A stretch of 64,000 bases of DNA from Limisphaerales bacterium (GTDB lineage: Bacteria > Patescibacteriota > Microgenomatia > UBA1400 > PJMF01), in the NCBI GenBank assembly GCA_044350895.1, contig JBILGT010000002.1:36554-100553 (forward strand), read 5' to 3'. The notes below the pieces were generated by a model that searched no databases, was not told where the DNA came from, and saw nothing but the letters and a program-made list of their open reading frames with translations. Shown here piece by piece: positions 2,785 to 64,000 of this stretch. A program made the translations under genes and the position numbers. Within the stretch, counting starts at the first letter, position 1. Each line of letters begins with the position of its first letter.

Positions 2785-2911
2785 TGCCTGTAGTGTAACA
2801 GAAAATGTCCCCTATTTCCTTTCTTTTCTTAAATGAGGTAAAATACACTGTAGAAGCATCCTGAAAACGAACTCCAAGACAATTGGTGTTTTTTGTTGCT
2901 AGTAAAAAGAT

Positions 2912-4207: not shown

Positions 4208-4217
4208 TCATATATCT

Positions 4218-9014: not shown

Positions 9015-9017
9015 AAA

Positions 9018-9602
9018 TTATGTGCTCTCTTGCTCCAAATATAGTAATCTAAATTGCTCACGTGCTCTGAATAACTCAGATTCCACTGATTTTACAGTTT
9101 TCCCCAGTTCAGTGGCAATTTGTGCCACTTTCTGGCTATCAACGTACTTTTTGAGCAAAAGTTCTCGAGAATATTCATTCATTTTTTTGAGTGCAACTAG
9201 GACACGAGCTGAAACTTCATGAGAATCTTCCACAGGACTTGAGAGCAACAGATGTGATAAAGCAGTGGTTTGAATTGCCTTTTTGGCATACATTTTTCGA
9301 TAAAAGTCAGCAACTTCATGTTTTGCGATAGCAGACATCCACGTCCAGAGACTCGCACTACCGTTATACAGGGACAAATTTTTTAGACAGTTTAAGAAAG
9401 TCTGCTGTGTCATTTCTTCAGCATCTTGGCTATTTTCCACTCTACTTTGAATGAATCTGAGGATTTTTTTATGAAAATGGTTAAACCAGTACTCGACGGC
9501 ATCTCGATCACCGAGTTTCAAAAGCTCTACTAGTTGCATTTCACTTTGTTGGTTCATACTACAGGAAGTATACTTTATTCTAGCTACACCGTATAATATC
9601 AT
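9018..9602 (-). CDS. RNA polymerase sigma factor, sigma-70/ECF family
   Basis: Region-2-like 'DAEEMTQQTFLNCLKNL' and a region-4 HTH 'SQKVAQIATELGKTVKSVESELFRAREQFR'. The likely true start is the internal Met at 9557 (MNQQSEMQLVELLK...). Confidence 0.65.
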   Translation of the reverse strand: MILYGVARIKYTSCSMNQQSEMQLVELLKLGDRDAVEYWFNHFHKKILRFIQSRVENSQDAEEMTQQTFLNCLKNLSLYNGSASLWTWMSAIAKHEVADFYRKMYAKKAIQTTALSHLLLSSPVEDSHEVSARVLVALKKMNEYSRELLLKKYVDSQKVAQIATELGKTVKSVESELFRAREQFRLLYLEQEST

Positions 9603-9606
9603 CCAT

Positions 9607-9966
9607 ATGTTTTTTCTAGTACAAAAAGTATATGCTGCAGGCTGCTCAGATCTAGACTATGGTTCTCCCGAACTTAATTTAGGCAGAGTGCTTTGCTTGA
9701 GCGACAGCACAGCTGTTGAAGATGTCTATAAAGATCCAGCATTTCTTGTCAACTTAATTGTTAGCAATTTATTTGTTTTTGCTGGAATAATAATTTTTCT
9801 TCTTATTTTTTACGCTGGATTTAAATTTATCTCTCAAGGAACTAAGGGCAAAGAGGAAGCAAAAGGGATCATTACTGCCGCTGTGACTGGCTTAGTATTG
9901 ATGTTTGCAGCATATTGGGTCCTCCAGATTGTAAAAACATTAACGGGGACTGACGTTGCACTCTAA
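9607..9966 (+). CDS. VirB2/TrbC-like pilin-type small membrane protein, paralog 1
   Basis: TM1 (LVNLIVSNLFVFAGIIIFLLIFYAGF), loop 'SQGTKGKEEAKG', TM2 (IITAAVTGLVLMFAAYWVLQIV). A TATAAT lies 12 bp upstream. Confidence 0.5.
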   Translation: MFFLVQKVYAAGCSDLDYGSPELNLGRVLCLSDSTAVEDVYKDPAFLVNLIVSNLFVFAGIIIFLLIFYAGFKFISQGTKGKEEAKGIITAAVTGLVLMFAAYWVLQIVKTLTGTDVAL

Positions 9967-9969
9967 ATT

Positions 9970-10419
9970 ATGAAAACAAATATAGTACTCAAAACTATTA
10001 GCTATATCTATCTTTTTGCTGTTATTATCAGTGCATTTTTCTGTATCCCAGGCCTCACCTTCGCACAAACTGCTGAAGACTTAGGGGTTGGAACAATTGC
10101 AGCCCCTCCTGGCGTGGATAAATATAATGCTGCCGCACAAGCGCAAGGTGCCGATATTGCGATCGTTTACTTTATGTCGAACATGATCAAGCTCTTTACG
10201 GTAGTTGCTGGAATCTGGGTAATTTTGAATGGCATTCTTGCAGGCTACTACTTTGTGCAATCAAGTGGAGACGCAGGCACCTATGAAAAAGCCCGTAATC
10301 AAATTACTCAAAGTGCCATTGGTCTTGCAATGATTGTACTTTCATATATGTTTACTGGGCTTGTTGGTTTACTTTTCTTTGGAGATGCGGGTATATTCTT
10401 AAATCCAAGGTTAAAATAG
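9970..10419 (+). CDS. VirB2/TrbC-like pilin-type small membrane protein, paralog 2
   Basis: Signal peptide plus 'VVAGIWVILNGILAGYYFVQSSGDAGTYEKARNQITQSAIGLAMIVLSYMFTGLVGLLFFGDAG'. Confidence 0.55.
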   Translation: MKTNIVLKTISYIYLFAVIISAFFCIPGLTFAQTAEDLGVGTIAAPPGVDKYNAAAQAQGADIAIVYFMSNMIKLFTVVAGIWVILNGILAGYYFVQSSGDAGTYEKARNQITQSAIGLAMIVLSYMFTGLVGLLFFGDAGIFLNPRLK

Positions 10420-10420
10420 T

Positions 10421-10969
10421 ATGAAACAGTTTATACTCAGCATCGTTGTTGCACTCTCAGTGCTATTCTTCGTCCCTACAGTGGCGCAAGCACAATCATG
10501 TCCTAGCAACCGGACTTGTAGTGGCGGTTGTACCGCTGTGGGCCAATGTGTTGGAAACAAACGATGTGTTAGTGTACAAGGCGTTATTTACCCTGGAACA
10601 GTTGATTGTGGTTCTGCCCAACTTGGCGGAGTTAAGCCACCTCCAGCTATTACTAGTTTTAATTTTCAAACTGGCTCTGCATCAGGCAATGGCATCATCC
10701 TCTTTTTATCTAGATTGATCAATCTTTTTGTCATAGTGTGTGGAATCTGGACAATGTTTAACTTTTTATATTCTGGATACATTCTAATTTCTTCTCAGTC
10801 AGATACTAAAAATCAAAGTGAAATAAAAGATAAATTAACAATGACAGCCATTGGCTTGGCTATTATTGCCGGAGCATACATAATCGCTGGACTAATCGGT
10901 CTTATTTTCTTTGGAGATGCGGGATATATTCTCAATCCGCAGCTCGTCAGCGCACTTGATAGAGGGTAA
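10421..10969 (+). CDS. VirB2/TrbC-like pilin-type small membrane protein, paralog 3 (with Cys-rich N-terminal extension)
   Basis: Signal peptide, a CPSNRTCSGGCTAVGQCVGNKRC module, then the shared two-helix domain ending 'IGLIFFGDAGYILNPQL' (same C-terminal tail as paralog 2). Confidence 0.55.
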   Translation: MKQFILSIVVALSVLFFVPTVAQAQSCPSNRTCSGGCTAVGQCVGNKRCVSVQGVIYPGTVDCGSAQLGGVKPPPAITSFNFQTGSASGNGIILFLSRLINLFVIVCGIWTMFNFLYSGYILISSQSDTKNQSEIKDKLTMTAIGLAIIAGAYIIAGLIGLIFFGDAGYILNPQLVSALDRG

Positions 10970-11025
10970 TATGGCTGGAAGATAGACTTTCTTCTGTCAT
11001 ATGGGTATAATTACAGGCGTACATT

Positions 11026-11406
11026 ATGATGATATACATAGCACAAAAACTTACCCAGTTCGGTTCTGGTTTTGCACCAGTTGTTGATACTGCATGGACA
11101 GATGGCTCAGATACAGAAGCAGGGGTACTTACCAATTTAGAAGCATTCATTTCACAAATCTTGGGACTGATTACAGTAATTGGTAGTTTGTTCTTTGTTA
11201 TCAACTTTCTCATGGCTGCCTTGAGCTGGATCACCGCAGCAGGTGACAGCGGCAAAATTCAAAAAGCTCGCGACCAGATGATTCAATCTACGTTGGGACT
11301 TGTTATTATGGTAGGCTCTTATGCAATAATTGGACTTATTGGATCAGTGGTTGGTATCGATATCTTACAACCAGGCCAAGCATTAAAGATGTTGATCCCA
11401 AGGTAA
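11026..11406 (+). CDS. VirB2/TrbC-like pilin-type small membrane protein, paralog 4
   Basis: 'WITAAGDSGKIQKARDQMIQSTLGLVIMVGSYAIIGLIG'. Confidence 0.55.
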   Translation: MMIYIAQKLTQFGSGFAPVVDTAWTDGSDTEAGVLTNLEAFISQILGLITVIGSLFFVINFLMAALSWITAAGDSGKIQKARDQMIQSTLGLVIMVGSYAIIGLIGSVVGIDILQPGQALKMLIPR

Positions 11407-11411
11407 ATTTA

Positions 11412-11840
11412 ATGTCATTAAACAAGTTACAAAAGACCATCTCATCAGTTACAACAACTACAGCACTTTTAGTGAGTAGTTCTACTTTGGCACTCGCTCA
11501 AACAGGCATAACCAATCCAGCAATTGGCATTTATGGTAAAGACCCAAATGCGGCCAAGGCCGGCACTTCATTTGCGGGGTATGTCGCTATCATGTGGAAA
11601 GCTATGATTTCAATTGGAGCATTACTAGTTCTCTTATACTTTGTATGGGGTGCAATCGATTGGATAACAGCCGCTGGAGATAAAGGTAAAATGGAAGGTG
11701 CCCGCAATAAAATGCTCAATGCCTTTATTGGTTTACTGCTATTGGTCAGCTCATACACCATAATTGCATTCGTTGGCTGGCTATTCTTTGGAACTGAATT
11801 CAACATCTTACAACCAATATTTATATTTAATAATCCATAA
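11412..11840 (+). CDS. VirB2/TrbC-like pilin-type small membrane protein, paralog 5
   Basis: Signal peptide plus 'WITAAGDKGKMEGARNKMLNAFIGLLLLVSSY'. Confidence 0.55.
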   Translation: MSLNKLQKTISSVTTTTALLVSSSTLALAQTGITNPAIGIYGKDPNAAKAGTSFAGYVAIMWKAMISIGALLVLLYFVWGAIDWITAAGDKGKMEGARNKMLNAFIGLLLLVSSYTIIAFVGWLFFGTEFNILQPIFIFNNP

Positions 11841-11845
11841 TATTT

Positions 11846-12187
11846 ATGCCAACACCAACAAAAATAGACTTACAAGGAGGCGCAATCCTCGCACAAATTC
11901 CAGGCACTGAGAACATGGAATCGCCAAATGCCGGCTTTGCCCGTCTTATTGGGAATATTCTTGCCGCAGTCATGGTTGTTTCATTACTCCTTGTTCTCTA
12001 CTTTTTAGTAGTTGGTGCAATTGAGTGGATTACGGCAGCTGGCGATAAAGGTAAAATTGATTCAGCACGTAACAAAATGACAAATGCTGTTATCGGCATC
12101 ATAGTTTTATCTTCCGTTACCGCACTATTTGCAGCTGTACAATATTTCTTAGGTGTCAATGTACTTACATTTTCATTTACCCCGTAA
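11846..12187 (+). CDS. VirB2/TrbC-like pilin-type small membrane protein, paralog 6
   Basis: 'WITAAGDKGKIDSARNKMTNAVIGIIVLSS'. Confidence 0.55.
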   Translation: MPTPTKIDLQGGAILAQIPGTENMESPNAGFARLIGNILAAVMVVSLLLVLYFLVVGAIEWITAAGDKGKIDSARNKMTNAVIGIIVLSSVTALFAAVQYFLGVNVLTFSFTP

Positions 12188-12325
12188 GGAGCGATTGATT
12201 CGCATACTTTAGAGTCTGGGTAAATCAAACTGGTACTTGCAAGCACTAAAAGTATATTGCTAAGCTATTACTTGACGGAGAGCATATAATATAATCTAGT
12301 GTAAGATACACTTACAAGGAGCAAG

Positions 12326-12739
12326 ATGATTGGTAAATTAAACACGGCATTAGTAGCCAGTACAGTAACTGGATTTTTAAGTGCACCAATTGCATTTGCA
12401 GTGGAACCTACTTCAGGAGTTACTTCAGCAGTTGGCACAGTCACAGCAGGAACTGGATGGGCAGATAACATCGGTGGTTTAATCACTAGTGTCTTAACTA
12501 TCGTCATGGTTGTTGCTATCCTACTCGTCTTACTCTACCTCATCATGGGTGGTATCGAATGGATCACATCTGGTGGTGATAAAGGTAAAACTGAAGGTGC
12601 TCGTAACAAAATTACCTCAGCTATCATTGGTATCATCATCTTGGCAGCAGCTTATGCGCTCGTCCAACTTGTCGCCTACGTATTAGGATTTGCAAGTCTG
12701 AACGCAGCTCTCGAATCATTACCTAGAATCGGTACGTAA
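12326..12739 (+). CDS. VirB2/TrbC-like pilin-type small membrane protein, paralog 7
   Basis: AAGGAG RBS 8 bp upstream of the ATG and a TATAAT around 12286. Signal peptide plus 'WITSGGDKGKTEGARNKITSAIIGIIILAAAYALVQLVAYVLGFASLNAAL'. Confidence 0.6.
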   Translation: MIGKLNTALVASTVTGFLSAPIAFAVEPTSGVTSAVGTVTAGTGWADNIGGLITSVLTIVMVVAILLVLLYLIMGGIEWITSGGDKGKTEGARNKITSAIIGIIILAAAYALVQLVAYVLGFASLNAALESLPRIGT

Positions 12740-13179
12740 TAACAATAATAATGAATTTAATTAAAAGGAGTTACATGTTAAATAAAATTCAAAAAGCAGC
12801 AGCAGCAACTGCGGGAGTCGCAGCCAGCTTACTAACCACTGCAGTAGCATACGCTAAAGATACCAGTGCTATAGGCACAGTCACACCAGGTACAGGTTGG
12901 GCAGATAACATCGGTGTTTTAATCACCAGTGTCCTCACCATCGTCATGGTTGTTGCTATCTTGCTCGTCTTACTTTACCTCATCATGGGTGGTATCGAAT
13001 GGATCACATCTGGTGGTGACAAAGGTAAAACTGAAGGTGCTCGTAACAAAATTACTTCAGCTATCATCGGTATTATCATCTTGGCCGCATCATATGCACT
13101 CGTCCAACTTGTCGCCTACGTCTTAGGATTTGCAAGTCTTAATGCCGCCCTGCTCTCATTGCCTCAAATCGGTAAGTAA
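12433..13179 (+). repeat. tandem duplication (~300 bp units, ~440 bp period) of pilin-type gene bodies
   Basis: 12461-12739 and 12901-13179 align base-for-base with only scattered substitutions (e.g. gcagataacatcggtg[g/t]tttaatcac...). Confidence 0.8.
12751..13179 (+). CDS. VirB2/TrbC-like pilin-type small membrane protein, paralog 8 (near-identical tandem copy of paralog 7)
   Basis: The probable true start is 12775 (AAAGGAG RBS just upstream; MLNKIQKAAAATAGVAASLLTTAVAYA signal peptide). The mature domain is about 90% identical at DNA level to paralog 7. Confidence 0.6.
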   Translation: MNLIKRSYMLNKIQKAAAATAGVAASLLTTAVAYAKDTSAIGTVTPGTGWADNIGVLITSVLTIVMVVAILLVLLYLIMGGIEWITSGGDKGKTEGARNKITSAIIGIIILAASYALVQLVAYVLGFASLNAALLSLPQIGK

Positions 13180-13202
13180 TATTTTTAAAATTAGAATTTC
13201 AG

Positions 13203-13230
13203 AAACCCCCATCTTGTATGGGGGTTTTTG
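13203..13230 (+). terminator. rho-independent terminator after pilin paralog 8
   Basis: AAACCCCCA-tcttgta-TGGGGGTTT followed by a T-run. Confidence 0.7.
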
Positions 13231-13266
13231 GTATATTAGGTGTGTTTGTTACACATTTGACCCACT

Positions 13267-13821
13267 TTGATGTATAATGTAAGTCTAATGAAAAAAGCCG
13301 TTATATCACTTGTATTAGTACTCATATTTAATTTTTTAGCTGTATTTAGCAATCCCATAGTATTCGCAGCAGACGAGGTAAAATTAGTCAAAGATGGTAG
13401 TACCTACTATCTGAGTACTGAAGGTTCTGCATCCACCACGCGCAGTGGACAAACCTATCGTCTTGTTCCTGTTGAGCAAACCGCCGCAACCAGTGCTGCA
13501 AAAACAGCATCTCGTTCAGCAGTTGTTCCGCCTCCTGGATATGTAGGTAATATTGGAGAGCTTATCAGCTTCTTACTTAAGTTGGTAATGATTGTGGCAA
13601 TTTTACTTATTCTTCTCGCCTTTATCACCGCTGGTTTTGAGTGGATTACATCTGGAGGTGACAAAGGTAAAACTGAAAGTGCCCGAAACCGCATTGTCGC
13701 AGCTTTTGTTGGTGTACTCATCTTATCTGCCGCATACGCATTAACACTACTCGTTGCCTATGTTCTTGGTTTTGATAGTATTGATGATGTTTTTGGCAGC
13801 ATTAAGCGAATTAATCCATAG
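13267..13821 (+). CDS. VirB2/TrbC-like pilin-type small membrane protein, paralog 9
   Basis: Probable start 13288 (MKKAVISLVLVLIFNFLAVFSNPIVFA). 'WITSGGDKGKTESARNRIVAAFVGVLILSAAYALTLLVAYVLGF'. Confidence 0.55.
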   Translation: MMYNVSLMKKAVISLVLVLIFNFLAVFSNPIVFAADEVKLVKDGSTYYLSTEGSASTTRSGQTYRLVPVEQTAATSAAKTASRSAVVPPPGYVGNIGELISFLLKLVMIVAILLILLAFITAGFEWITSGGDKGKTESARNRIVAAFVGVLILSAAYALTLLVAYVLGFDSIDDVFGSIKRINP

Positions 13822-13844
13822 GTCACAAACTCTACATTCACTTC

Positions 13845-14372
13845 TTGCTGTTCTATCAGGTATACTATAGAGATTCAAAATCTATGCGCCGTAACACATT
13901 TACCTATCAAGTAATTTCATTTTTTAGAGCTGCAATCTTCAGTGTCGCACTACTTGCAAACGTCGCTGGCCCAGTCTACGCCCAAACCCAGGCTTGGTCA
14001 GGTGTGTGTGTCGGCCCAGCTCAGATTAATGCAGCAACGAAAGCCAATGATGTTGCTACTATCCAAGGCGTTCAGTGTCTACTTGCCAATGTATTTACTG
14101 TGATCATAACAATCGTCGGTCTGGCAGGATTTGTCATGTTTATTGTAGGTGCCTTTAGATATTTGGTTTCTGGCTCAAATAGCAAGGGTATTGAAGCCGC
14201 CAAAAATACCATTCAATACATGGTGATCGGCATTATTGTAACGCTCAGTGGTTTCATCATTCTGAATATGATTTCTTCATTCACCGGAATCGACGTCATT
14301 ACTCGATTTGTTATTCCAAGTTCAGATCGTGGTACTTCTGCAGATGACTATCCAATTCCAGTTGGAATGTAA
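13845..14372 (+). CDS. VirB2/TrbC-like pilin-type small membrane protein, paralog 10 (divergent)
   Basis: Probable start 13884 (MRRNTF...signal peptide). 'IVGLAGFVMFIVGAFRYLVSGSNSKGIEAAKNTIQYMVIGIIVTLSGFIILNMI'. Confidence 0.45.
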   Translation: MLFYQVYYRDSKSMRRNTFTYQVISFFRAAIFSVALLANVAGPVYAQTQAWSGVCVGPAQINAATKANDVATIQGVQCLLANVFTVIITIVGLAGFVMFIVGAFRYLVSGSNSKGIEAAKNTIQYMVIGIIVTLSGFIILNMISSFTGIDVITRFVIPSSDRGTSADDYPIPVGM

Positions 14373-30600: not shown

Positions 30601-32447
30601 CGCAGCTTGAAGCTGCTTACCTCACCGCAATCACTACCAATCAAGGAATGCACTCACTTCCCGGGCCAGATGAGATCACACAAGTTGGAGGTGATCAACA
30701 ACCCGCCCAGCCTGGACAAAACTTGCCTGAGAGTACTACCAGAAGCCCACTCAGAGAGCGACTGAAAAATGGACTCAGAAAAAAAGCCACAGGAGAAATA
30801 ACTAAGAGACTTGGTGCAGCAACTGCCGAAAAAGCCCTTTTTGGTCTTGGAGGCAAACTGGCTGGTTTGGCATCTGGGGTTGGTGCTGCAATTGCTGCAG
30901 CTGCATTGATTAAGGACGTTCTCACTGAACTTTGGAATAACGAGGGCTTACGAAATCTACTCGCTGGGGCATTAACTGTCGGTTCAGCAATTTTGCTTAA
31001 TATTCTTGGAAATGTGGCGGGACTTTTAACTTTTGCTGCAATAAGTTTTGTGGGAGGATTTTCTATCCCCGCTCTCTTAGCTGGATTAGCTGCTGGTCAA
31101 GCAGCAGCCATGGCAGCACCTTGGGCACGCTGGTTTTCACAACCACGCACACCACCAAACCCATTTGGTTTCTCAACTGGTAGTGAGCAGTCAGCATCAG
31201 GAACTCCATCATTAGCTCAAATGCGTGGAAAAGCTCCTGGGGCGACTCCCCAATCGTCCATTTCACCTACTCCAGAATCAACCACAGCGACTGCAAATAG
31301 TGGAGTAACACCAGATGGTTCAAATGCTTCTGTTTCTGCTACAACCCAATATAGTACAACTTCAACAACAGCCGCTACTGCTTCTGGATTGTCTCAACTT
31401 GCTGCTATACCTATTGCTATTCTGGCTCCAACAATGGGAATTTTCACCGTTTTCATATCAACAATATTGGTTGTCACTGTTATTGCAGGAGCATTTTTAG
31501 TACCAGTTCCTACAAAACCAAATTCTCGCAAGGTAATTGATGGACTTGGACAACAGTCCAGTTCCAAATACGTCACTATCACAAAAACTCCTTCAATTGG
31601 AGCTACAAAAGGAGAAATTCAAAATAGAACAGATGTTCCTGTTACGTACACAATTACTGTTGAACCAAAGCCAGGATATTCAATAAAAGTTACTGGCGTA
31701 AAAGATGAATTTTCTGGAATTGGTGGGCAAACAACAGACCTGCAATCAAAACTTGATTTTTCAAAATTCCCCAGTGAACCAATCAAGGACTCTTCATTTT
31801 CAACAAGCTATACGGTCAATACAGGCACCAATTTGATTGATGCACTTATAATGAATGCTGTTACAGCAACCTTTGATGTATACGATTACACTGGGTACGT
31901 AATTGAAACGGGTGAAACATATACCGCAACAGCAACTATTTATATTGGTAATCCAAAAGTAGGCTGTTGGCCAACTAGTGGTGGTGTATGGCAACTGCCT
32001 GGTGGTAGCTTCAGTCATAGCAGATTGGATGCATACGACATTGGAAATGAAATTGGAACTCCTGTGTATGCGCCATTCCCTGGAGAAGTATGTGATAAAG
32101 GATATGACACTGCAGCAAGCGGTGGATATGGGCTCCACGCCAGTTTGAAGTTCAACCTAGGTGGCGGAGATCTCGTCCTATTTTTTGGTCACTTTGTTAA
32201 AAGTCCAAAAGATTTAATTGAAGGACTTGATGCCCGCGGATGTAAGACTGTTAATGCTGGAACACTCATAGGACTGATGGATGACACAGGTTTTTCCACA
32301 GCATCTCACTTACATTACGAACTGAGACCAAATACAATTGGGGTGAAGCTCAAAGATTTGCATCCAGATGGTCAACAGGTTATTAATTCATTCAACAGTG
32401 GAAAAAGGCCAGTGATCGTCCGAGACTGTTTTGGAGGAACAAAATAA
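27606..32447 (+). CDS. giant (1613 aa) membrane protein: large cytoplasmic N-terminal region, Gly/Ala-zipper TM segments, extracellular C-terminal M23 (LytM) peptidase domain
   Basis: C-terminus 'HSRLDAYDIGNEIGTPVYAPFPGEV...GGYGLHASLKF...GTLIGLMDDTGFSTASHLHYELRP' is the M23 signature (HxxxD...HxH). TM cluster 'GLASGVGAAIAAAAL...ALTVGSAILLNILGNVAGLLTFAAISFVGGFSIPALLAGLAAGQAAAMAA' and 'IAILAPTMGIFTVFISTILVVTVIAGAFLV'. Confidence 0.65.
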   Translation: MASDTQPRQIVFVAGTTTSVDEYPVDVDHIKQIGFYSSDDFIQFKDLFLELINSLHLNDQGIYELYPGQEIKQIRITYQKDGGNFQKVSLRTTDGLPGDPGIPEKRERLFFCDFVYISLGIAKILRKNYPKSTETLKDYTDSFDIEKQIKEWGAAGEKQYLSQRALQWETPAIKELLTEIFTAFQDITVELKKEPVQEPPAEESGERRATEADALLVLPEVLTAGVTPTVDGGGDTADTTSTPTSTRTESIEDESSYVTARQFVLGFARTTLIDDVLRRSGLDPDSLPPELRGRYDELFRILETELTIVLRNLSDEERERLASGDVSQKISVYYLLLRQLSGSPSARFYELFVEFYETEVTHLVENQQTEAAQQLVTAVTAQFSEVAQEIPELQRIHDNLLAWEREILSAAPVAATTAETDDEIETPATIVEATDEVEIQISRLPDPPVIIPTFQAQVSALPQVQQLTQNEQASIPNRSGHVIWGAMAELFSEEDLRRNNIPPELFNAVSQTAYEYLNGLSAQELKKLAKSPSSLIRHIKNVSVRLQTDAVFSETYGQYKLSYATPAINRTERIEVETQWASENLKYELFSAHDITTSLLNQSAKLTSEYRDVEQNLEAKVYGIFLTFSTDYLQLLYFNPNERRTLIIRIQNTLNADPQFLRELSEFYNELIVYFAEQQRLEEREDLVESLKSTNHSFLQEEGTFRYIVSDVQLSDSHKLFIEQLKKSLNTDSPPILQNTANVLDALIIAHGIEETNRLIQGVSPQLLEMTFGLPTGIITDDNHRSIREILGNYITVRVFNLAPGEIADHRALLVPGQTTIPTNATSLQKHLGPVHNLAKIITEDGSEKTTLALQGGVKKRIDALEKVLGQKWRNLGLEERAAVYLYFDKPFDASLKQRLKSKSADLEADKHILGVFIEFAGFNDRLLPELVTDARLNGFQRLTGGIPVETKSGDDITEFYKITRQAEILELEVSLLVLDELSALEREQLAAQYQMSAAQLEAAYLTAITTNQGMHSLPGPDEITQVGGDQQPAQPGQNLPESTTRSPLRERLKNGLRKKATGEITKRLGAATAEKALFGLGGKLAGLASGVGAAIAAAALIKDVLTELWNNEGLRNLLAGALTVGSAILLNILGNVAGLLTFAAISFVGGFSIPALLAGLAAGQAAAMAAPWARWFSQPRTPPNPFGFSTGSEQSASGTPSLAQMRGKAPGATPQSSISPTPESTTATANSGVTPDGSNASVSATTQYSTTSTTAATASGLSQLAAIPIAILAPTMGIFTVFISTILVVTVIAGAFLVPVPTKPNSRKVIDGLGQQSSSKYVTITKTPSIGATKGEIQNRTDVPVTYTITVEPKPGYSIKVTGVKDEFSGIGGQTTDLQSKLDFSKFPSEPIKDSSFSTSYTVNTGTNLIDALIMNAVTATFDVYDYTGYVIETGETYTATATIYIGNPKVGCWPTSGGVWQLPGGSFSHSRLDAYDIGNEIGTPVYAPFPGEVCDKGYDTAASGGYGLHASLKFNLGGGDLVLFFGHFVKSPKDLIEGLDARGCKTVNAGTLIGLMDDTGFSTASHLHYELRPNTIGVKLKDLHPDGQQVINSFNSGKRPVIVRDCFGGTK

Positions 32448-34684: not shown

Positions 34685-35923
34685 TTGCGACAGCTTCCAA
34701 AAGAAGCTACCATTAAAAAGCAACATATGGCAGATATTATTCAATCAACAACACAACAATTCTTGGATATTTACGATATCACCAACAACTTTGTGGTAAT
34801 GAAAGACGGCACTGTATCGACAATATTAACTGTTGATGCAATGAATTTTGGTCTTTTAGCAGAAGAAGAACAAGATGCCATCATGTACGCCTACGCAGGA
34901 CTGCTCAACTCACTCAACTACTCTGTTCAAATCATTATTAACTCTAGAACAAAAGACGTTACGTCATACTTAAAAGTGCTGCAGGAACAGGAAACTACTG
35001 CAGAGACCGAGACACTCCGTCGGCGCATCAGAATGTACCGGGAGTTTGTCGGCAACTTAATTCATGAAAGAAATGTTTTGGATAAAAAGTTCTATGTTGT
35101 CATTCCTGCCGCAGCCGTTGAAATGGGATTTTTAGCTCCAGCAAGTGTGTTACCTGGAAAAACCAATGCGTTTGATATCAGTTCAATTGAGCGTTCTGTC
35201 ATAATTGAAAAAGCTAGAAATCTGCTTGACCCTAAGCGAGACCACCTCATTGCGCAGTTTGCACGTATTGGATTGTTTTCAAGACAGCTTTCAACGCAGG
35301 AAATTATTCAACTGTTCTATGTTCGATACAACCCAGAAGCGGTTGAAGGTCAGCAAATTGGTGAAAGTAGTAGTTATACCACTCCGCTTGTAAAAGCGAG
35401 TATACAGGGAAATTTTATGAATACCCCGACACAAACGGTACCACAACCTCAAGCTATACCTGAGGTGCAAGCTTCGCTTGACCCAGTTGTCACACAATCA
35501 ATGCCAGAGATGAGCATGCAACCAGCACATCTTGAACCAGTTCCAGAAATTCATATTGCTGCTGTTGCTCCTGAAACTGTTGCAGCTCCATTTACACCTA
35601 CAGAACCACCGGCTGCACCAGTCATGCCACCAATGGCAACTATGCCGCAAATGTCTCAACCACCAGCAATTGAGACACCCATTTCTCCAGTAGTTTCACA
35701 ACCACCAGTGGTAAATACACCACCTATGCAAACTATTGAGATTCCAGCTGCAACTCCACCTGTACCAGAGAACACACTAGCCAGCACTGGAAGTCTCCCG
35801 TCCGAAGCTGAAGTACAAGCTGATTTAAATACAACACTACAGTCTCTGGGGACCACACCAGATATAACCAGTGTTCCACCAACCCAACCAGCGGCTGATC
35901 TGCCACCGCTGCCAGAGATTTAA
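34685..35923 (+). CDS. protein with VirB4-N-terminal-like domain followed by Pro/Thr/Gln-rich low-complexity tail
   Basis: 'FLDIYDITNNFVVMKDGTVSTILTVDAMNFGLLAEEEQDAIMYAYAGLLNSLNYSVQIIINS' resembles the CagE/TrbE/VirB4 N-terminal domain. The C-terminal 190 aa are PxxP-rich. Start is adjacent to the stop of the upstream gene. Confidence 0.4.
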   Translation: MRQLPKEATIKKQHMADIIQSTTQQFLDIYDITNNFVVMKDGTVSTILTVDAMNFGLLAEEEQDAIMYAYAGLLNSLNYSVQIIINSRTKDVTSYLKVLQEQETTAETETLRRRIRMYREFVGNLIHERNVLDKKFYVVIPAAAVEMGFLAPASVLPGKTNAFDISSIERSVIIEKARNLLDPKRDHLIAQFARIGLFSRQLSTQEIIQLFYVRYNPEAVEGQQIGESSSYTTPLVKASIQGNFMNTPTQTVPQPQAIPEVQASLDPVVTQSMPEMSMQPAHLEPVPEIHIAAVAPETVAAPFTPTEPPAAPVMPPMATMPQMSQPPAIETPISPVVSQPPVVNTPPMQTIEIPAATPPVPENTLASTGSLPSEAEVQADLNTTLQSLGTTPDITSVPPTQPAADLPPLPEI

Positions 35924-35984: not shown

Positions 35985-38048
35985 ATGCCCAGTTTATCGT
36001 CGTTACTTCCAACGCTTCCGTTTCCATTTGGCCAAAAGAAAAAGCCTGAGAATTCGCCATCACCAGAGGAGCTGCAGGAACAGAAAAACTTGGAAAAGTT
36101 ACAACAGTTTTCTCGAGGCCTAGTTACTATCCAAGATATCATTGCTCCTGAAGCTATTGAGGTTGATTTTACGTATCAGAAAATCAACTCTACCTATACT
36201 AGAACTCTGTTTGTAGCTGGCTATCCCCGAACTGTCCCAGCCAACTGGCTCGCGCCACTCATCAACTACCCACATCAGATTACAACTTCAATGTTTATCT
36301 TTCCGGTAGATTCAGCTGAGATTCTCGATAACCTCAAACGCAAAATCACTGAAATGGAAGCTGAAATTCAATCAGATTTACGTGCAGGTAAGATTTCAAA
36401 CATTAATACCGAAGTTAAACTAGAAGACGCACGATTCATTCGCGAAGAACTAGCAAAAGGTGCGGAGCGGTTTTATCAATTTGGTCTGTATGTCACTATT
36501 CAAGCCAAAGATAAAGAAGAACTCGATAAGATCACTAAAAGCATTCAATCAACACTCGGTTCTCTCTTAATCGTATCCAAGAAAGCTACGCTGCAAATGG
36601 ATGAGGGATTTAAGACAACGTTACCAATGGGAGTTGATAAGTTGCTCGTCACTCGAAATATGGATACCACGTCACTCGCAACAACATTCCCGTTTACTTC
36701 ATCTGAACTTACGATGGAAACAGGCATTATGTACGGCATTAATGAGCATAATGACTCGCTCGTTATCTTTGACCGTTTCAAGATGGAAAACGCCAACATG
36801 GTTATCTTTGCTAAGTCAGGTGCTGGAAAATCTTACACCGTCAAACTAGAGATTTTGCGCCAGCTTATGTTTGGTGCTGAAGTGATTGTTATGGACCCTG
36901 AACATGAGTATGAAGATATGTCTGTAGCCGTAGCTGGAACGTACATTAATTTTACTTTTAATTCTGAAACAAAGATCAACCCTTTTGACCTCGCCAATCT
37001 CTATGAGGAAGGTGAAAATGAACTTGGGCAAAAAATTATTTCATTACATGGTCTTCTCAAAGTTATGTTGGGTGATATGACACCACAACAAGATGCTTTA
37101 CTCGACCGCGCCTTGGTAGCAGCTTATAAAGCTAAAGGCATTACTCCAGATCCAGCAACACAAGTCAACGAACCACCACTCATGGAAGATGTCTATAAAG
37201 CTTTGATTGGTATGGAAAATCGAGATGCTGATGATATTTCAGCCAGACTAGAAAAATTTATCACAGGTTCATTCCGAGGAATTTTCGATCAAAAATCAAA
37301 CATTGATATTAAAAGCCAATTAACGGTCTTTTCAGTTAAAGAAATGGAAGAAGAGATGCGTCCAATTGCGATGTACATCATCTTGGACTTTATCTGGACT
37401 CGTATTCGCAAAGACCTCAAGAAGCGCCTTCTTATTATTGATGAGGCCTGGTACTTTATGAAGCATCCTGATTCAGCTTCATTTATCTACTCAATGGTAA
37501 AGCGTGCTCGTAAATATTACTTGGGTATTACCACCATCACGCAAGATGTTGAAGACTTTTTGCACACAGATTACGGTAAAGCAATTGTGACAAACGCTTC
37601 CATCCAGTTTTTGATGAAGCAGTCTACAGCGTCAATTCCGGTTCTTGCAGAAACGTTCTATCTTTCACAAGGTGAACGACAACTGCTCGTCACAGCAGAT
37701 GTTGGTGAAGGAATTTTCTTTGCAGGGCAAAATCACGTTGCGCTTCGTGTTGTGGCTAGTGAAGAAGAACACACCTTAATTACAACCAACCCTGAAGAAG
37801 TACTACAAAACCGCCGTGTTGCAGAACAAACCAGAATTCAAGCTGCAACTGATTTGGCTGAGAAAAAACCATCATATCCGATGCCACCACGACAGCCTGC
37901 TCAAAGAGAACCAGCTGCACAAGCTGCAATGCCTGCCGTCTTAGTCAAAACAGCTGATACAACTTCTGCTGCTGCGACTGGTCGACCACAGTACATGCCA
38001 GATTCAATTGATAATTACAAACCACCTTCTAAACCAATCAAACAATAG
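35985..38048 (+). CDS. virB4: type IV secretion ATPase VirB4 (Gram-positive TcpF/PrgJ/TraE-like)
   Basis: N-terminal 'IAPEAIEVDFTYQKINSTYTRTLFVAGYPRTVPANWLAPL...SMFIFP', Walker A 'FAKSGAGKSYT', Walker B 'LLIIDEAWYFM'. 687 aa. Confidence 0.8.
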   Translation: MPSLSSLLPTLPFPFGQKKKPENSPSPEELQEQKNLEKLQQFSRGLVTIQDIIAPEAIEVDFTYQKINSTYTRTLFVAGYPRTVPANWLAPLINYPHQITTSMFIFPVDSAEILDNLKRKITEMEAEIQSDLRAGKISNINTEVKLEDARFIREELAKGAERFYQFGLYVTIQAKDKEELDKITKSIQSTLGSLLIVSKKATLQMDEGFKTTLPMGVDKLLVTRNMDTTSLATTFPFTSSELTMETGIMYGINEHNDSLVIFDRFKMENANMVIFAKSGAGKSYTVKLEILRQLMFGAEVIVMDPEHEYEDMSVAVAGTYINFTFNSETKINPFDLANLYEEGENELGQKIISLHGLLKVMLGDMTPQQDALLDRALVAAYKAKGITPDPATQVNEPPLMEDVYKALIGMENRDADDISARLEKFITGSFRGIFDQKSNIDIKSQLTVFSVKEMEEEMRPIAMYIILDFIWTRIRKDLKKRLLIIDEAWYFMKHPDSASFIYSMVKRARKYYLGITTITQDVEDFLHTDYGKAIVTNASIQFLMKQSTASIPVLAETFYLSQGERQLLVTADVGEGIFFAGQNHVALRVVASEEEHTLITTNPEEVLQNRRVAEQTRIQAATDLAEKKPSYPMPPRQPAQREPAAQAAMPAVLVKTADTTSAAATGRPQYMPDSIDNYKPPSKPIKQ

Positions 38049-38151
38049 CTTTTCCTACTTGCGTGCTGTGTAAAACACTGTGTATAACTATGTGACTCGT
38101 CTAACGATTTAAGTAATCTGGGTCTAATTTTTCTCTGGAGATGTTCTTTTT

Positions 38152-39675
38152 ATGCAGCAATCAACACTTTCTAATGAAGAAGTTTCTACAATTTGGCAAC
38201 AGTACTGCAACTTACTCCAAAAAGAGATGTCTTCTGCAGTTTACAACACGTGGATTCTCTCAAATCCCATTACAGAAATTGAGGTTATAGATGACACAAA
38301 AGCCGTTGTCACCATTACTAGTCCAACAGCTTTCCACTCCACAAACCTCAAAAAGAACTTACATATGCAAGTCAAACAAGCATTAGATGTTCTTCTACAA
38401 AGAAATTGTGAAGTTTCATATTTAGTGGGTGATCCACAAAAGAAACGAGAAACTCCAAAAGAACCTGCTACAGGATTCACACAAGTGGTTTCAGCTTCGT
38501 TTACACAGCAACAGTTTGCAGCTACTTCTACTCCACCGGCATTTGCCAATCACACACAAAACCAATCCCCGCGGGTTGAAGATTTATTTTCTGAGAATAC
38601 GATGATGAATGCAGCAGAAGAACGTATTCAAATGCAAGCGCGCGGCATTGGTTTGAGAATTGATTACACCTTTGCCACGTTTGCAGTCTCCACCACCAAC
38701 GAAATGGCACATGCAGCAGCTACAGCAGTATCAAACAGACCAGGTCAGTCATACAATCCACTCTTTCTATATGGTGGTGTGGGTGTCGGCAAAACGCATC
38801 TCATGCACGCGATTGGCCATAATATTTTGAGAGCAAATCCGAATGCCAAGATTATCTACTGTACTGGTGAAGAGTTTACCAATGACATTGTGCATGCCAT
38901 TCAAACAAAAAAGGCTAGCCACTTCAAAGATCGCTATAGATCAGCAAATGTTTTATTAATTGACGATATTCAGTTTATTGCTGGTAAAAACGCTGTCCAA
39001 GAAGAGTTTTTTCACACATTTAACGCACTTACCAAGCAATTTAGCCAAATAGTGCTTACTTCAGATCGGCCACCTCACGAAATAACATTACTTGAGGATC
39101 GGCTGAGATCACGCTTTGAAGCTGGACTGATGATTGATATTCAACAACCATCATTTGAATTAAGAACAGCAATAGTCCTAGTAAAAGCCAAAGCACAACA
39201 AATCGCAATCACCATAGATCTTGCAAAAGTGATTGCTTCAAAAGTCGAGAGTGCCCGAAAGATAGAAGGCATTATCACGAGTATTCGATCCGAAATTGAA
39301 CTTAAACACCGAGAGCTCAACCTAGAATTGATTGAAGATATTCTGCAAGTAGAAGTCGAAGTTAAACGACCTCGGATAAAAGTTGCTCCTGCTGATGTCA
39401 TTAAAACTGTGGCTAATCACTATCACGTTAAGCAGTCATCATTAAAAGGTTCAAGTAGGCTTAAAAGTCTTGTTACAGCGCGTCATATCGCGATGTATTT
39501 ACTCAAAAAAGAGCTTTCTTTACCACTCACCGAAATCGGTCGTTGGTTTGCAAGTCGTGACCACACTAGTGTGTTACATGCAGTGAAAAAAGTCGAAAAA
39601 GATATGGCGCTCAGTGATGAATTGCGTCAGGATGTGTCAGCACTCCAGATGACATTGGCTGCGATTTCAAAATAA
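38152..39675 (+). CDS. dnaA: chromosomal replication initiator DnaA
   Basis: Walker A 'LFLYGGVGVGKTHLMHAIG', 'LLIDDIQFIAGKNAVQEEFFHTFNAL', C-terminal domain IV 'TARHIAMYLLKKELSLPLTEIGRWFASRDHTSVLHAVKKVE'. Confidence 0.92.
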   Translation: MQQSTLSNEEVSTIWQQYCNLLQKEMSSAVYNTWILSNPITEIEVIDDTKAVVTITSPTAFHSTNLKKNLHMQVKQALDVLLQRNCEVSYLVGDPQKKRETPKEPATGFTQVVSASFTQQQFAATSTPPAFANHTQNQSPRVEDLFSENTMMNAAEERIQMQARGIGLRIDYTFATFAVSTTNEMAHAAATAVSNRPGQSYNPLFLYGGVGVGKTHLMHAIGHNILRANPNAKIIYCTGEEFTNDIVHAIQTKKASHFKDRYRSANVLLIDDIQFIAGKNAVQEEFFHTFNALTKQFSQIVLTSDRPPHEITLLEDRLRSRFEAGLMIDIQQPSFELRTAIVLVKAKAQQIAITIDLAKVIASKVESARKIEGIITSIRSEIELKHRELNLELIEDILQVEVEVKRPRIKVAPADVIKTVANHYHVKQSSLKGSSRLKSLVTARHIAMYLLKKELSLPLTEIGRWFASRDHTSVLHAVKKVEKDMALSDELRQDVSALQMTLAAISK

Positions 39676-60727: not shown

Positions 60728-62110
60728 ATGGCAAAAACAAAAACACAATACGTCTGTCAAAACTGTGGTCAGTCATATCCTCGCTGGACTGGTCAGTGTC
60801 CCAGCTGTAGCCAATGGAACACGTTGGTTGAGGAAGTAGTCGAATCCAAAAAAGCTGGCCTTCGTCCTGTCGCAACACCCGCTGTGGGTATGACTTTTAC
60901 TCAAGTCGACCGCGTAAAAGACGTAAAATCACGGTTTCCCACCGGCATTGGAGAGTTAGACCGTGTTTTGGGCGGAGAAAAAGAGAAGTTGGGAATGGTG
61001 GCTGGTGCTGTGATGCTGATTGGTGGAGAACCAGGAATTGGAAAATCAACACTCCTCACACAAGTTGTGTTGGAGCGATTGCTCACAACTGCAAAAGATG
61101 CTCACATTCAGCCAATTATCTATGTTTGTGGCGAGGAAAGCCCAAGTCAAATAACGCTACGTATCAATAGAATACTTGAACAAGAAACAAAAAAATTTGG
61201 CAACAGAAATATCCTTGATAATCTTATTTTTATCCCTAATACCGACGTTGACCAGGTGGTTGCTGCTTTAGAAACAGCCAAGCCGCAACTGGCTATCATC
61301 GACAGTATTCAGACAATGACAACACAAGACTTGACTGGAGTTTCAGGAAGTGTCGGACAAGTTCGTGAATCAACGGAGCGCTTAACACATGCTGCGAAGC
61401 GCGGTAACTTTCCATTGTTCTTAGTGGGGCATGTTACCAAAGAGGGGGAGCTTGCAGGGCCAAAGGTGCTTGAACACATTGTTGATGCAGTTTTAGAATT
61501 AAGTGGCGAAAGAACAAACGATTTGAGAATAGTAAGAGCTATTAAAAACCGCTTTGGTGCAACCGATGAAGTGGGTGTGCTGCAACTTGGGGAGTCCGGT
61601 TTTATTTCTGTTGCCAACCCAAGTAGTTTATTCCTTGAACATCAAACACAACCCGTTGCAGGTTCAGCCACAGTCTGTGTTTTAGAAGGAACAAGGCCAC
61701 TATTACTTGAGGTACAAGCGCTTGCTGTTCGTTCACAACTGGCAATGCCACGTCGTGTAGGTAGAGGAGTAGAACTTACCCGCATCCAAGTTATTTCCGC
61801 AATATTACAGAAATATTGCCGCATGCCTTTGGATGGCTATGATTTGTTCATTAACCTAGCTGGGGGATTCAGCACAAAAGAGCCGGGTCTAGACCTTGGT
61901 ATGGCGCTGGCAATAGCAAGCTCACTTAAAAATAAGTCGTTACCACCTCAGACAGTCTGCATTGGTGAAGTGGGTCTACTCGGGGAAATACGGCAGGTTA
62001 ATCTCTTAGATAGGCGGATAAAAGAGAGTAATAGGCTTGGATTTAATACTGTTATATCAAAGAATACGCACAAAACGATACAACAAATTATTCAACAGTT
62101 CGGGTTGTAG
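60728..62110 (+). CDS. radA: DNA repair protein RadA/Sms
   Basis: N-terminal C4 zinc ribbon (CQNCGQSYPRWTGQCPSCSQWN), 'GIGELDRVLGGE', Walker A 'GGEPGIGKST', Lon-like C-terminal domain. Confidence 0.9.
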   Translation: MAKTKTQYVCQNCGQSYPRWTGQCPSCSQWNTLVEEVVESKKAGLRPVATPAVGMTFTQVDRVKDVKSRFPTGIGELDRVLGGEKEKLGMVAGAVMLIGGEPGIGKSTLLTQVVLERLLTTAKDAHIQPIIYVCGEESPSQITLRINRILEQETKKFGNRNILDNLIFIPNTDVDQVVAALETAKPQLAIIDSIQTMTTQDLTGVSGSVGQVRESTERLTHAAKRGNFPLFLVGHVTKEGELAGPKVLEHIVDAVLELSGERTNDLRIVRAIKNRFGATDEVGVLQLGESGFISVANPSSLFLEHQTQPVAGSATVCVLEGTRPLLLEVQALAVRSQLAMPRRVGRGVELTRIQVISAILQKYCRMPLDGYDLFINLAGGFSTKEPGLDLGMALAIASSLKNKSLPPQTVCIGEVGLLGEIRQVNLLDRRIKESNRLGFNTVISKNTHKTIQQIIQQFGL

Positions 62111-62203: not shown

Positions 62204-63898
62204 TTATTTTTTGGAACGAGCGTAGCGCTCACTACTGGCTTTGACGACTTTATCTTTATTCATATTGCTACTCTTAGCGAGTGGCAATGTCTCAGCCGGG
62301 AAGGGATCACAAATTTGATTATCGATAGAAAGTTTGCTGATAATTTGATGACGGTTGAGTGAAACCAAGTCGTCAGGAGTGAACTGGCTGCCAAATTCTT
62401 TACTAAATACATTAGAATCTTCTGCGCCAAGAACAAAACTCAAAATACTTCCGCAGTTGCCAAAGATTGCTTTCTGCACATCTTCAGGAATCTGGGCAAT
62501 ATATTGGTTGGCAAGAATAAGATTGAGTCGATATTTTCGAGCTTCAGAAAGAATTTTGCTAAATGATTCTGTAGCAAAGTTTTGGAACTCATCGACATAT
62601 AAATAGAAGTCTCGGCGTTGCTCTTCAGGGGTATTAACCCGAGCCATTGCCGCCAACTGAATTTTTGTAATTAACATTGCACCAAGCAGTGTGGCATTAT
62701 CTTCACCGAGTTTTCCTTGCGAAAGGTTAACAAGAATAATCTTTCCTTGATCCATAGCTTCTTCAATACTGAATGAACTTTTTCGAGCATTAACAACATC
62801 TCGAACGAGTGGAGAGGAAACAAACTGACCAACTTTATTTAAAATTGGAGCGATTGCTTCATTTCGTTGCTTTTCCTGCATTGGATCAAACTCATTGACC
62901 CAGAAATTTTTGAGAATTGGGTCATCTAGTTTTTCAACTATTTTTGAACGGAAGTTTGCATCAGTAAGCATGTCGACAATATCCGACATACGTGCAGTTT
63001 CACTTTTAAGTAATGTCAACAGCGCATTTCTTAAAATATATTCCAAGCGTGGTCCCCATGAATATGCATAGAGTTTCTTGAATACTGAAACGATTCCTGA
63101 AGCTATTAACTCTCGGTGGACGACGTTATTTCCCTCAAAAAGGTTGAGTTTGACGGTGCGCTCAGTGTCGCTGGGGTCAAAGTAAATTGTGTCGTTAATA
63201 CGATGAGAGGGAATGTAGTTTAAAAGAATATCAATCAAATCACCATGGGGATCAATAACACATAACCCCTCGTTGTTCTTTAAATCATTGATTGCCATGT
63301 TGGCAAGTAGCGTAGACTTACCGGTTCCTGTTTTTCCAATCACATACATGTGTCGGCGACGATCTTTTCGACTTAATCCATATACAGTGGGTTTGTTTTT
63401 GTAGAGTGCTCGAGCAAAAACATTAATCTCACGCTTTGCTTCAGGTGTCATATCGGCAGTGACAATAGGTAAGTCTTCAGGTGGTTCTCCCATCAATTTT
63501 TTACCCCACGCAATATTCATAATGCCAGCCAATGTCTGGTTGGGAAGGTGAAAGAGAGTGGCAAGTTCAAGTAAACTAAAATGTTGAGAACTCTTCAAAA
63601 AAGTCTCACGTTTCTTCATTGCTCGCAAAAAATGTTTGGGTAATATTCGTATTTTAGTGAGTTGAAGCGTATTGCTTTCACTATTGGTAAATGTTTGAAA
63701 TGAATGTCCAATTGTCTCAAGAAGCAGCTTGCTTCTTTCTGGAGAATCAGAACTGACTGCTAGTCTAATTATTCCAGCAAGTGATTGATGGGCTGTTTTT
63801 TTATCGATAAGTGATTGTTGTGGGTGGGGAGTTGTGCTCGTGCTAATTCCTGATTTCCATCGCTGATCTTCTTGCGAGACAGTATATTGCAATACCAC
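62204..63898 (-). CDS. soluble TraD/TrwB/VirD4-like P-loop ATPase (coupling-protein family)
   Basis: Walker A 'VIGKTGTGKST', 'GLCVIDPHGDLID' (compare TrwB '...IVDPNGDM'), Walker B/'YLYVDEFQNF'. No TM segments within the window; the N-terminus may extend beyond the window end. Confidence 0.5.
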   Translation of the reverse strand: MVLQYTVSQEDQRWKSGISTSTTPHPQQSLIDKKTAHQSLAGIIRLAVSSDSPERSKLLLETIGHSFQTFTNSESNTLQLTKIRILPKHFLRAMKKRETFLKSSQHFSLLELATLFHLPNQTLAGIMNIAWGKKLMGEPPEDLPIVTADMTPEAKREINVFARALYKNKPTVYGLSRKDRRRHMYVIGKTGTGKSTLLANMAINDLKNNEGLCVIDPHGDLIDILLNYIPSHRINDTIYFDPSDTERTVKLNLFEGNNVVHRELIASGIVSVFKKLYAYSWGPRLEYILRNALLTLLKSETARMSDIVDMLTDANFRSKIVEKLDDPILKNFWVNEFDPMQEKQRNEAIAPILNKVGQFVSSPLVRDVVNARKSSFSIEEAMDQGKIILVNLSQGKLGEDNATLLGAMLITKIQLAAMARVNTPEEQRRDFYLYVDEFQNFATESFSKILSEARKYRLNLILANQYIAQIPEDVQKAIFGNCGSILSFVLGAEDSNVFSKEFGSQFTPDDLVSLNRHQIISKLSIDNQICDPFPAETLPLAKSSNMNKDKVVKASSERYARSKK

Positions 63899-64000
63899 TT
63901 TGTCAAATTCACCAAGTTGAGAAAGCGTGGAGAGAAGTGGTAGTAATGCGTCAGTAGAACTAAAGTCAGCGTAGGTTTTAAGAGGAAAATAGTCTCGATT

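Follow-up and report, generated by a model that had tools for sequence, protein, structure and literature searches.

Is a coupling-protein-like ATPase that lacks any apparent membrane anchor, and whose gene stands far from the nearest secretion genes, still a part of a type IV secretion system (T4SS), or has it become something else? The question is raised by a minus-strand gene (hereafter the target gene) at the right edge of a 64,000-nucleotide stretch (the window) of contig JBILGT010000002.1, which belongs to assembly GCA_044350895.1 of a Limisphaerales bacterium placed by GTDB in the Microgenomatia (Patescibacteriota). An initial annotation, made from the letters alone, had described its product as a soluble VirD4/TrwB-like ATPase and had proposed two roles for it: substrate-recruiting ATPase of the system to which a VirB4 encoded elsewhere in the window belongs, or HerA/FtsK-like DNA translocase. 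Our analysis indicates that the protein is very probably a soluble member of the type IV coupling protein (T4CP) family, in which a DUF8128 domain precedes a TrwB-like motor, and that it belongs to an already catalogued, near-universal Patescibacterial family.

The target gene is real beyond doubt: database searches give at least 8000 matches, and the best 120, which are those listed, range in E-value from 0 to about 1e-259. No second copy was found in the window. The reading frame that ends in the stop codon 62204-62206 stays open as far as the edge at 64000, with 598 sense codons and no upstream stop. Of the interval first proposed for the gene, 62204-63898, only the stop end holds, the GTG at 63898 being merely the first one within the window and not the start of the gene; the accompanying suspicion that the gene runs past the window's end was well founded. 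A 100% identical metagenomic protein encoded on a 2-kb contig (P0001) reaches 73 residues further upstream than the frame in the window, and intact orthologues have 711-735 residues, among them a protein of 718 residues from a 1.37-Mb contig (P0002) that is 88% identical over its residues 121-718. Since the intact orthologues are longer and P0001 extends upstream, about 120 N-terminal residues and the promoter of the target gene must lie outside the window (Table 1).

To judge from its sequence, the motor belongs to the VirD4/TrwB coupling-protein branch, as had been supposed. Pfam TrwB_AAD_bind scores 45.3 bits on it against a cut-off of 20.5, TraG-D_C scores 31.6 bits against 22, and the top sequence match in the PDB is TrwB (phmmer, 5e-8), over TrwB residues 46-321, which include Walker A, the all-alpha domain and Walker B. 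The Walker A, VIDPHGDL and Walker B motifs that had been pointed out are all there, inside invariant or near-invariant columns of an alignment of 32 orthologues. Mean pairwise identity among these orthologues is 78% in the motor versus 46% in the N-domain, and on this measure the motor is strongly constrained. Between Walker A and Walker B the target appears to carry the all-alpha insertion of coupling proteins, aligned with the corresponding segment of TrwB, whose limits are G184-G297 (PMC7434980): seven helices are predicted in P0002 residues 413-522 by the AlphaFold2 (AF2) secondary structure, where the model's confidence score (pLDDT) is only moderate, 70-87. The VirB4 profiles CagE_TrbE_VirB, AAA_10 and P-loop_TraG, all three of which match the VirB4 of the window, are absent among the 18 Pfam matches of the target. 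The equivalog cut-offs of NCBIfam are not reached, neither by the top models, VirD4-like CD1115 (47 bits versus 250) and TraD (38 bits versus 366 for the SXT model), nor by CedD (28 versus 600).

What the initial annotation overlooked is a domain of about 300 residues that takes the place of the usual transmembrane (TM) anchor. According to precomputed Pfam annotation, the first ~300 residues are DUF8128 (PF26449), and the order DUF8128, PF10412, PF01935, PF12696 is found in P0001 and in nearly all of the best 120 matches. We found no mention of DUF8128 in the literature that we searched. The AF2 model of the domain has a pLDDT of 88.7, and with this model all 13 Foldseek matches at E<=1e-3 are TrwK chains; the full-length model can also be aligned with TrwK from one end to the other, in about 840 columns. 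DUF8128 is thus predicted to fold like the N-terminal domain (NTD) of VirB4 proteins. The match probably falls within the NTD of TrwK itself, a placement suggested by collinearity and by the fact that the other matches are not P-loop proteins, as the tools print no aligned ranges. In solved T4SS structures, each VirB4 dimer is held together by the NTDs of its protomers, which are also embedded in the membrane and touch VirB3 and VirB8 (2025 review, PMC12857230).

The lack of TM helices noticed in the visible part extends to the complete protein. Taking as TM-like any 19-residue window with a Kyte-Doolittle hydropathy above 1.6, such a window occurs in only two of 119 full-length close homologues, and the highest value in P0001 and P0002 is 1.35, inside the ATPase. 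Because 117 of these homologues are devoid of a hydrophobic helix, the word soluble is valid for the whole target protein. T4CPs without a TM domain are a recognised subfamily in Gram-positive systems, an example being TraJ of pIP501, which works with TraI (PMC7434980).

The target family is near-universal in Patescibacteria. It comprises 6136 clusters at E<=1e-30 in a library clustered at 50% identity and is present in at least 600 GTDB species-representative genomes, and a recent survey counted 5,713 VirD4-type T4CP homologues in 2,918 of 3,035 Patescibacterial genomes (Quiñonero-Coronel et al. 2025, PMC12102498). We kept 80 loci from Microgenomates, Saccharibacteria, Dojkabacteria, Berkelbacteria, Gracilibacteria and Moranbacteria for comparison. 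Many of the GTDB-representative records of metagenome-assembled genomes among them (L002-L072) have a Patescibacterial neighbourhood and are titled "uncultured Pseudomonadales" or "Gammaproteobacteria bacterium", so that their taxonomy is apparently mislabelled. A neighbour-joining tree of the motor domains has three groups. The first is a soluble clade with all the Microgenomates loci, including the protein of the window; the second, with loci from Saccharibacteria, Dojkabacteria, Berkelbacteria and Gracilibacteria, has one N-terminal TM helix followed by the same N-domain and the ATPase; and the third consists of proteins that start at the ATPase, the N-domain being encoded by a separate gene immediately upstream in both members for which there is DNA. 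These two pairs of adjoining genes lie at 8582-12979 of a Moranbacteria locus (L080) and at 2434-5508 of a Saccharibacteria locus (L081), with DUF8128-like N-domain proteins of 429 and 437 residues and ATPases of 660 and 584 residues, respectively. About 40 representative clusters also start directly at the ATPase. Tandem paralogues were seen in three loci (L066, 6793-12778; L068, 1128-6163; L069, 1232-6528), and in L068 one of the copies has an N-terminal TM helix and the other has none.

The same architecture is found outside the phylum. A tblastn search of 72,556 plasmids gave homologues of the motor on 762 of them, and full-length homologues exist on plasmids of Bacillaceae (BLASTP 3e-44 over residues 33-687). 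Compared by hhalign with two diverged plasmid proteins, neither of which has a TM helix and in which Walker A comes at about residue 350-355, the N-domain is matched with probabilities of 98.8% and 98.7%. On these plasmids the homologue of the target is the first gene of a conjugation-like operon; a gene of the replication-relaxation family (a putative relaxase) comes directly after it, then genes for conjugal transfer and TcpE-like proteins, and then one for a VirB4-like ATPase. Examples, annotated as "DUF87 domain-containing protein", are WP_345805471.1 on NZ_CP154917.1, WP_213380696.1 on NZ_OX419568.1 and a protein of pBM69 of B. methanolicus. At BLAST sensitivity, a Bacillus N-domain query finds 18 plasmids, only from Bacillaceae, none of them from Enterococcus or Staphylococcus. 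The Bacillus proteins thus share with the target an identical two-domain architecture, a Walker A at about residue 350 and the absence of a TM helix, and differ from it in being plasmid-borne, directly before putative relaxase and T4SS genes, in their long acidic C-terminal tails and in a sequence identity of only 22-25%. We considered pLS20 as a model for them and rejected it, as its T4CP (gene 48) has two TM helices and its operon order is different.

With TrwB of R388 and VirD4 the target shares the RecA-like nucleotide-binding domain with Walker A and B, the all-alpha insertion, the TraG-D_C region and the VDPxGD motif. Unlike them, it has no N-terminal TM domain and carries an extra N-domain of 300 residues with a predicted VirB4-NTD fold, and its gene is chromosomal, among housekeeping genes, devoid of a relaxase partner and vertically conserved across the phylum. 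TraJ of pIP501 is, like the target, a soluble T4CP, in a monoderm T4SS, and needs a partner to reach the membrane, namely the small membrane protein TraI (PMC7434980). No gene for such a small membrane protein was found upstream of the target's orthologue in the orthologous locus L001. There, a 580-bp intergenic region (9421-10001) separates the start of the orthologue from a divergent sortase gene and contains seven promoter-like sites versus 2.2 expected, and a search of this region gave no convincing open reading frame (ORF), Rfam match or tRNA.

How could such a protein work? We propose that its place of action is the T4SS, where it would serve as an accessory substrate receptor or energiser and dock by its VirB4-like N-domain rather than by TM helices, and we hold the chances of this proposal to be about even. 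It is based on the predicted N-domain fold, on the relatives that have a TM anchor, on the position in the Bacillus operons and on an occasional adjacency to the T4SS core: in four of the 80 loci (L014, L016, L019 and L035, of the Gottesmanbacteria lineage; tblastn) the orthologue divergently adjoins the core of PrgI-like, 412-residue and VirB4 genes beside dnaA. The protein would oligomerise as an NTP-driven ring, like other T4CPs, and, having no TM anchor, would dock on the resident T4SS from the cytoplasmic side, with VirB4 itself or the PrgI/VirB3-like or VirB8-like subunits as its contact. Once docked, it would receive or energise the transport of protein or DNA cargo, in a manner dispensable in laboratory co-culture. 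The single N-terminal TM helix of distant relatives fits a workplace close to the membrane.

A good number of observations weigh against this proposal, chiefly a non-essential counterpart beside an essential T4SS, the weak gene linkage and a distribution wider than that of VirB4. At the level of sequence, hhalign of our alignments A2 (N-domain) and A1 against an alignment of 26 Patescibacterial VirB4 sequences gives a collinear match that is not significant (probabilities of 0.4% and 6%, respectively), so that we reject homology of the N-domain to VirB4 at the sequence level and confine the likeness to predicted structure. When ORFs were called in 81 loci, compared all against all by BLAST and clustered, no conserved operon partner emerged, the commonest neighbour cluster being present in 15 loci, and the neighbours are housekeeping genes such as radA, rho, sortase, groES/EL, topA, mreB, PBP2 and tsf/rpsB; in Dojkabacteria and Saccharibacteria they are rluD, an LCP-family gene, yebC, ruvC and ruvA. 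Across the phylum, just 148 of the 5,713 T4CP homologues are near virB4, VirB4 is found in 2,417 genomes, fewer than the 2,918 with a T4CP homologue, and relaxases are nearly absent (PMC12102498). As for the plasmids of Bacillus, they are typed as "non-mobilizable", and we found no experimental study of them.

The only functional data come from the saccharibacterium Southlakia epibionticum ML1 (S. epibionticum), where transposon sequencing (Tn-seq) found the T4CP homologue SEML1_0293, the target's closest saccharibacterial counterpart, non-essential at all three time points and the T4SS genes SEML1_0006-0019 essential, and whose T4SS has no recognisable coupling and relaxase proteins according to the same authors (Wang et al. 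2023, PMC10633639). The normalised reads of SEML1_0293 drop from 5817 to 2940 and then 1372 (PMC10633639, Tables S1 and S2). SEML1_0293 has 921 residues, matches PF10412, PF12696 and PF01935, as the target does, and was flagged as a core and Patescibacteria-enriched gene (PMC10633639); upstream of it lies a sigma-region-4/HARE-HTH gene, as in loci L067, L070 and L075. Its ATPase begins at about residue 400, and members of its clade have one N-terminal TM helix, in contrast to the soluble Microgenomates clade of the window protein; to judge from the neighbour-joining tree and synteny, the two clades are putatively orthologous. S. epibionticum encodes a second T4CP-like protein, SEML1_0142, which is essential, as is its canonical FtsK (PMC10633639). 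The two T4CP-like ATPases of this species therefore have opposite Tn-seq calls, essential for SEML1_0142 and non-essential with falling reads for SEML1_0293, and the 2025 survey deals only with the non-essential homologue. With a dispensable counterpart beside an essential T4SS and so few homologues near virB4, the role first suggested for the target, substrate-recruiting ATPase of the same system, is not established.

These same observations feed the alternative that the target is a T4CP-type ring exapted for recombination or repair, for the processing of competence DNA or for another housekeeping task, and that it translocates nucleic acids in the cytoplasm, independently of any secretion channel. 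In nearly all of the 80 loci the gene stands among housekeeping genes; radA is its neighbour in the window and in six close relatives, and yebC-ruvC-ruvA are on its strand in six Dojkabacteria and Saccharibacteria loci. T4CP homologues occur in more genomes than VirB4, the non-essentiality of the S. epibionticum counterpart is shared by comEC, and exaptation was proposed by Quiñonero-Coronel et al. because that homologue is not essential (PMC12102498). However, radA is convergent, and therefore not co-transcribed with the target gene, and two recombination-gene neighbourhoods among so many contexts are about what chance would give (an estimate, not a formal test). An essential canonical FtsK in S. 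epibionticum leaves no obvious vacant role for a translocase, and the predicted likeness of the N-domain to the VirB4 NTD, the relatives with a TM anchor and the position in the Bacillus operons all speak for a T4SS setting. We consider this alternative rather unlikely.

Less likely still is that the target is a second VirB4-like assembly ATPase that pairs with VirB4 through NTD-NTD contacts, for instance as the "outer" protomer of a hexamer of dimers, and helps to assemble or retract the unusual VirB2-like Patescibacterial pilus. Over its entire length the model does align with TrwK/VirB4, and better than with TrwB; the N-domain, as modelled, answers to the fold of the VirB4 NTD, which mediates VirB4 dimerisation; the genome has eight pilin genes and two extended pilins; and the separate N-domain gene of some genomes recalls TrsD, a stand-alone VirB4-NTD-like protein. 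Yet the motor fails the VirB4-specific profiles that the VirB4 of the window passes and bears two T4CP traits, the all-alpha domain and the TraG-D_C region, and in S. epibionticum the pilin and VirB4 genes are essential and SEML1_0293 is not. The target also differs from VirB4/TrwK in that it shows no detectable sequence-profile similarity to Patescibacterial VirB4 and that its gene does not adjoin a VirB3 gene in the window. Somewhere between the two families lies the idea, which we regard as doubtful, that the target family is a VirB4/VirD4 hybrid or evolutionary intermediate, with a VirD4-type motor on a VirB4-type N-terminal docking domain.

The translocase of HerA/NurA or FtsK type that had been offered as the other choice is effectively refuted, and we reject it on profile scores, N-domain fold and neighbours. 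HerA and FtsK/SpoIIIE share with the target the ASCE P-loop superfamily, the nature of ring translocases and a match to DUF87, the HerA central domain, which on the target motor is above cut-off (2e-8); HerA also appears among the Foldseek matches of the full model and weakly in the PDB, NCBIfam and PADLOC. But the HerA matches cover no more than P-loop or Walker B segments and lie far below family cut-offs (E 0.017-0.9 in the PDB; 15-18 bits versus 800-970 in NCBIfam), FtsK_SpoIIIE reaches 14.1 bits versus 24 over the P-loop only, and the FtsK alpha and gamma domains are missing. The N-domain search gives VirB4 and no HAS-barrel, and no NurA gene, which next to the target gene and together with a best structural homology to HerA/NurA-type helicases would have refuted the initial reading, was found in the annotated ORFs of the window or in 80 related neighbourhoods. 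Scarcely more credible is a component of anti-phage defence, similar to the mad8 ATPase of MADS, or a relic of an integrated conjugative element. Although mad8 is the top defence model of PADLOC (9e-17) and plasmid homologues exist, this match covers the generic ATPase only; there are no adjoining defence or mobile-element genes, and no integrase, relaxase or tRNA gene was found in the whole window. The neighbours are housekeeping genes, syntenic with those of relatives, and a near-universal vertical conservation across classes, with 78% identity in the motor, is the opposite of how defence islands or relics behave. We have rejected the defence reading for this wrong context and generic match.

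Table 1. Position of the target gene, its domains and motifs, and the genes discussed in the window
Feature	Position	Strand	Remarks
Visible 3' five-sixths of the target gene	62204..64000	-	Residues ~121-718 of ~718, plus stop codon 62204-62206; true start ~360 nt beyond the window end
Part of the N-domain (C-terminal 180 residues; Pfam DUF8128, PF26449)	63461..64000	-	Predicted fold like the N-terminal domain of VirB4/TrwK
Conserved N-domain motif ELATLFHLP	63542-63568	-	
Conserved N-domain motif NIAWGK	63500-63517	-	
T4CP-type motor: nucleotide-binding domain, inserted all-alpha domain and TraG-D_C region	62261..63460	-	Pfam, phmmer
Walker A/P-loop GKTGTGKST	63311-63337	-	Columns G342-T350 invariant (32 orthologues)
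VIDPHGDL, aligned with TrwB VDPNGDM	63236-63259	-	I369-D374 invariant; V368 and L375 conserved in >=90% of sequences
Helical insertion, putative all-alpha domain equivalent (P0002 residues 413-522)	62795..63124	-	Between Walker A and Walker B
Walker B YLYVDEFQNF	62576-62605	-	Invariant in 32 orthologues except the first Y (outside the conserved columns)
VirB4 ATPase of the resident T4SS	35985..38048	+	Candidate partner; Pfam P-loop_TraG 1.7e-21, AAA_10, CagE_TrbE_VirB; 75-93% identical to Patescibacterial VirB4
PrgI/VirB3-like protein, 396 residues	33494-34684	+	PrgI Pfam match
412-residue protein directly upstream of VirB4	34685-35923	+	
Eight consecutive VirB2-like pilin genes (126-184 residues), same T4SS	9970..14372	+	All Pfam T4SS_pilin (PF18895) at E<=3e-4; 5 of 8 above the 26.6-bit cut-off; one also TrbC/VirB2
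radA/sms, convergent downstream neighbour of the target gene	60728..62110	+	93-bp gap between stop codons; in L001, Pfam AAA_25/ChlI/Zn ribbon

The remainder of the window (Table 1) is that of a Patescibacterial (CPR) chromosome, the best named relatives being Woesebacteria and other Microgenomates. Between the target gene and VirB4 we measured 24.2 kb, occupied by dnaA, dnaN, yidC, leuS and other housekeeping genes, which bears out the distance of about 24 kb, and the origin and housekeeping block, initially reported. In at least 11 relatives the target protein and VirB4 are reported on contigs of equal size, seven of which measure 33-85 kb; a loose origin-proximal linkage of the two is therefore conserved within the clade, and may reflect synteny rather than function. 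A scan between the target gene and the convergent radA detected no intrinsic terminator, and Pfam scans of the larger ORFs of the window gave no relaxase.

The T4SS genes of the window have some features of their own. About 100 bp separate the end of the VirB4 gene from dnaA (38048-38152), so the T4SS is origin-proximal, as reported for some Patescibacteria (PMC12102498). The PrgI/VirB3-like protein has a C-terminal CarboxypepD_reg-like domain, an unusual extension for a VirB3 homologue. The run of eight pilin genes corresponds to the array of VirB2-like pilins known for Patescibacterial T4SSs, and two adjoining proteins encoded at 2912-5534 on the plus strand (431 and 445 residues) have the T4SS_pilin domain only at their extreme C-termini, resembling "extended pilins" whose N-terminal regions of about 360 residues have no Pfam match. 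Flanking the T4SS core are three giant ORFs (14460-18686, plus strand; 21515-26197, minus strand; 27606-32447, plus strand) of 1408, 1560 and 1613 residues, two of them without a Pfam match and the remaining one with only a C-terminal M23 peptidase domain.

Much of this is ordinary for the phylum. That such genes exist, that they lie far from virB4 and that the one homologue examined is non-essential has all been published before, and what we add is therefore a hypothesis on structure and architecture, not a new system. Three elements of it appear to be undescribed: the VirB4-NTD-like fold predicted for DUF8128, the recurrence of this two-domain architecture at the T4CP position of Bacillus plasmid operons that resemble conjugation operons, and the TM-anchored and split-gene variants. 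If the N-domain does make NTD-NTD or NTD-VirB3/VirB8 contacts, the target family would show a coupling protein plugging into the VirB4 platform without a membrane anchor and, together with its TM-anchored and split-gene relatives, could record how an ancestor similar to VirB4 gave rise to T4CPs. The relaxase-less, near-universal T4SS of Patescibacteria would then also have a dedicated, conditionally dispensable substrate receptor.

A large part of the bacterial diversity that is uncultivated belongs to Patescibacteria. To our knowledge, their T4SS is the first to have been shown essential for the growth of a bacterium, and we know of neither a cargo nor a substrate receptor for it. A near-universal and strongly conserved T4CP-type ATPase, with a docking domain predicted to resemble that of VirB4, is the obvious candidate for this receptor, and S. 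epibionticum, with SEML1_0293 and its essential paralogue SEML1_0142, is the one tractable species in which the idea can be tested.

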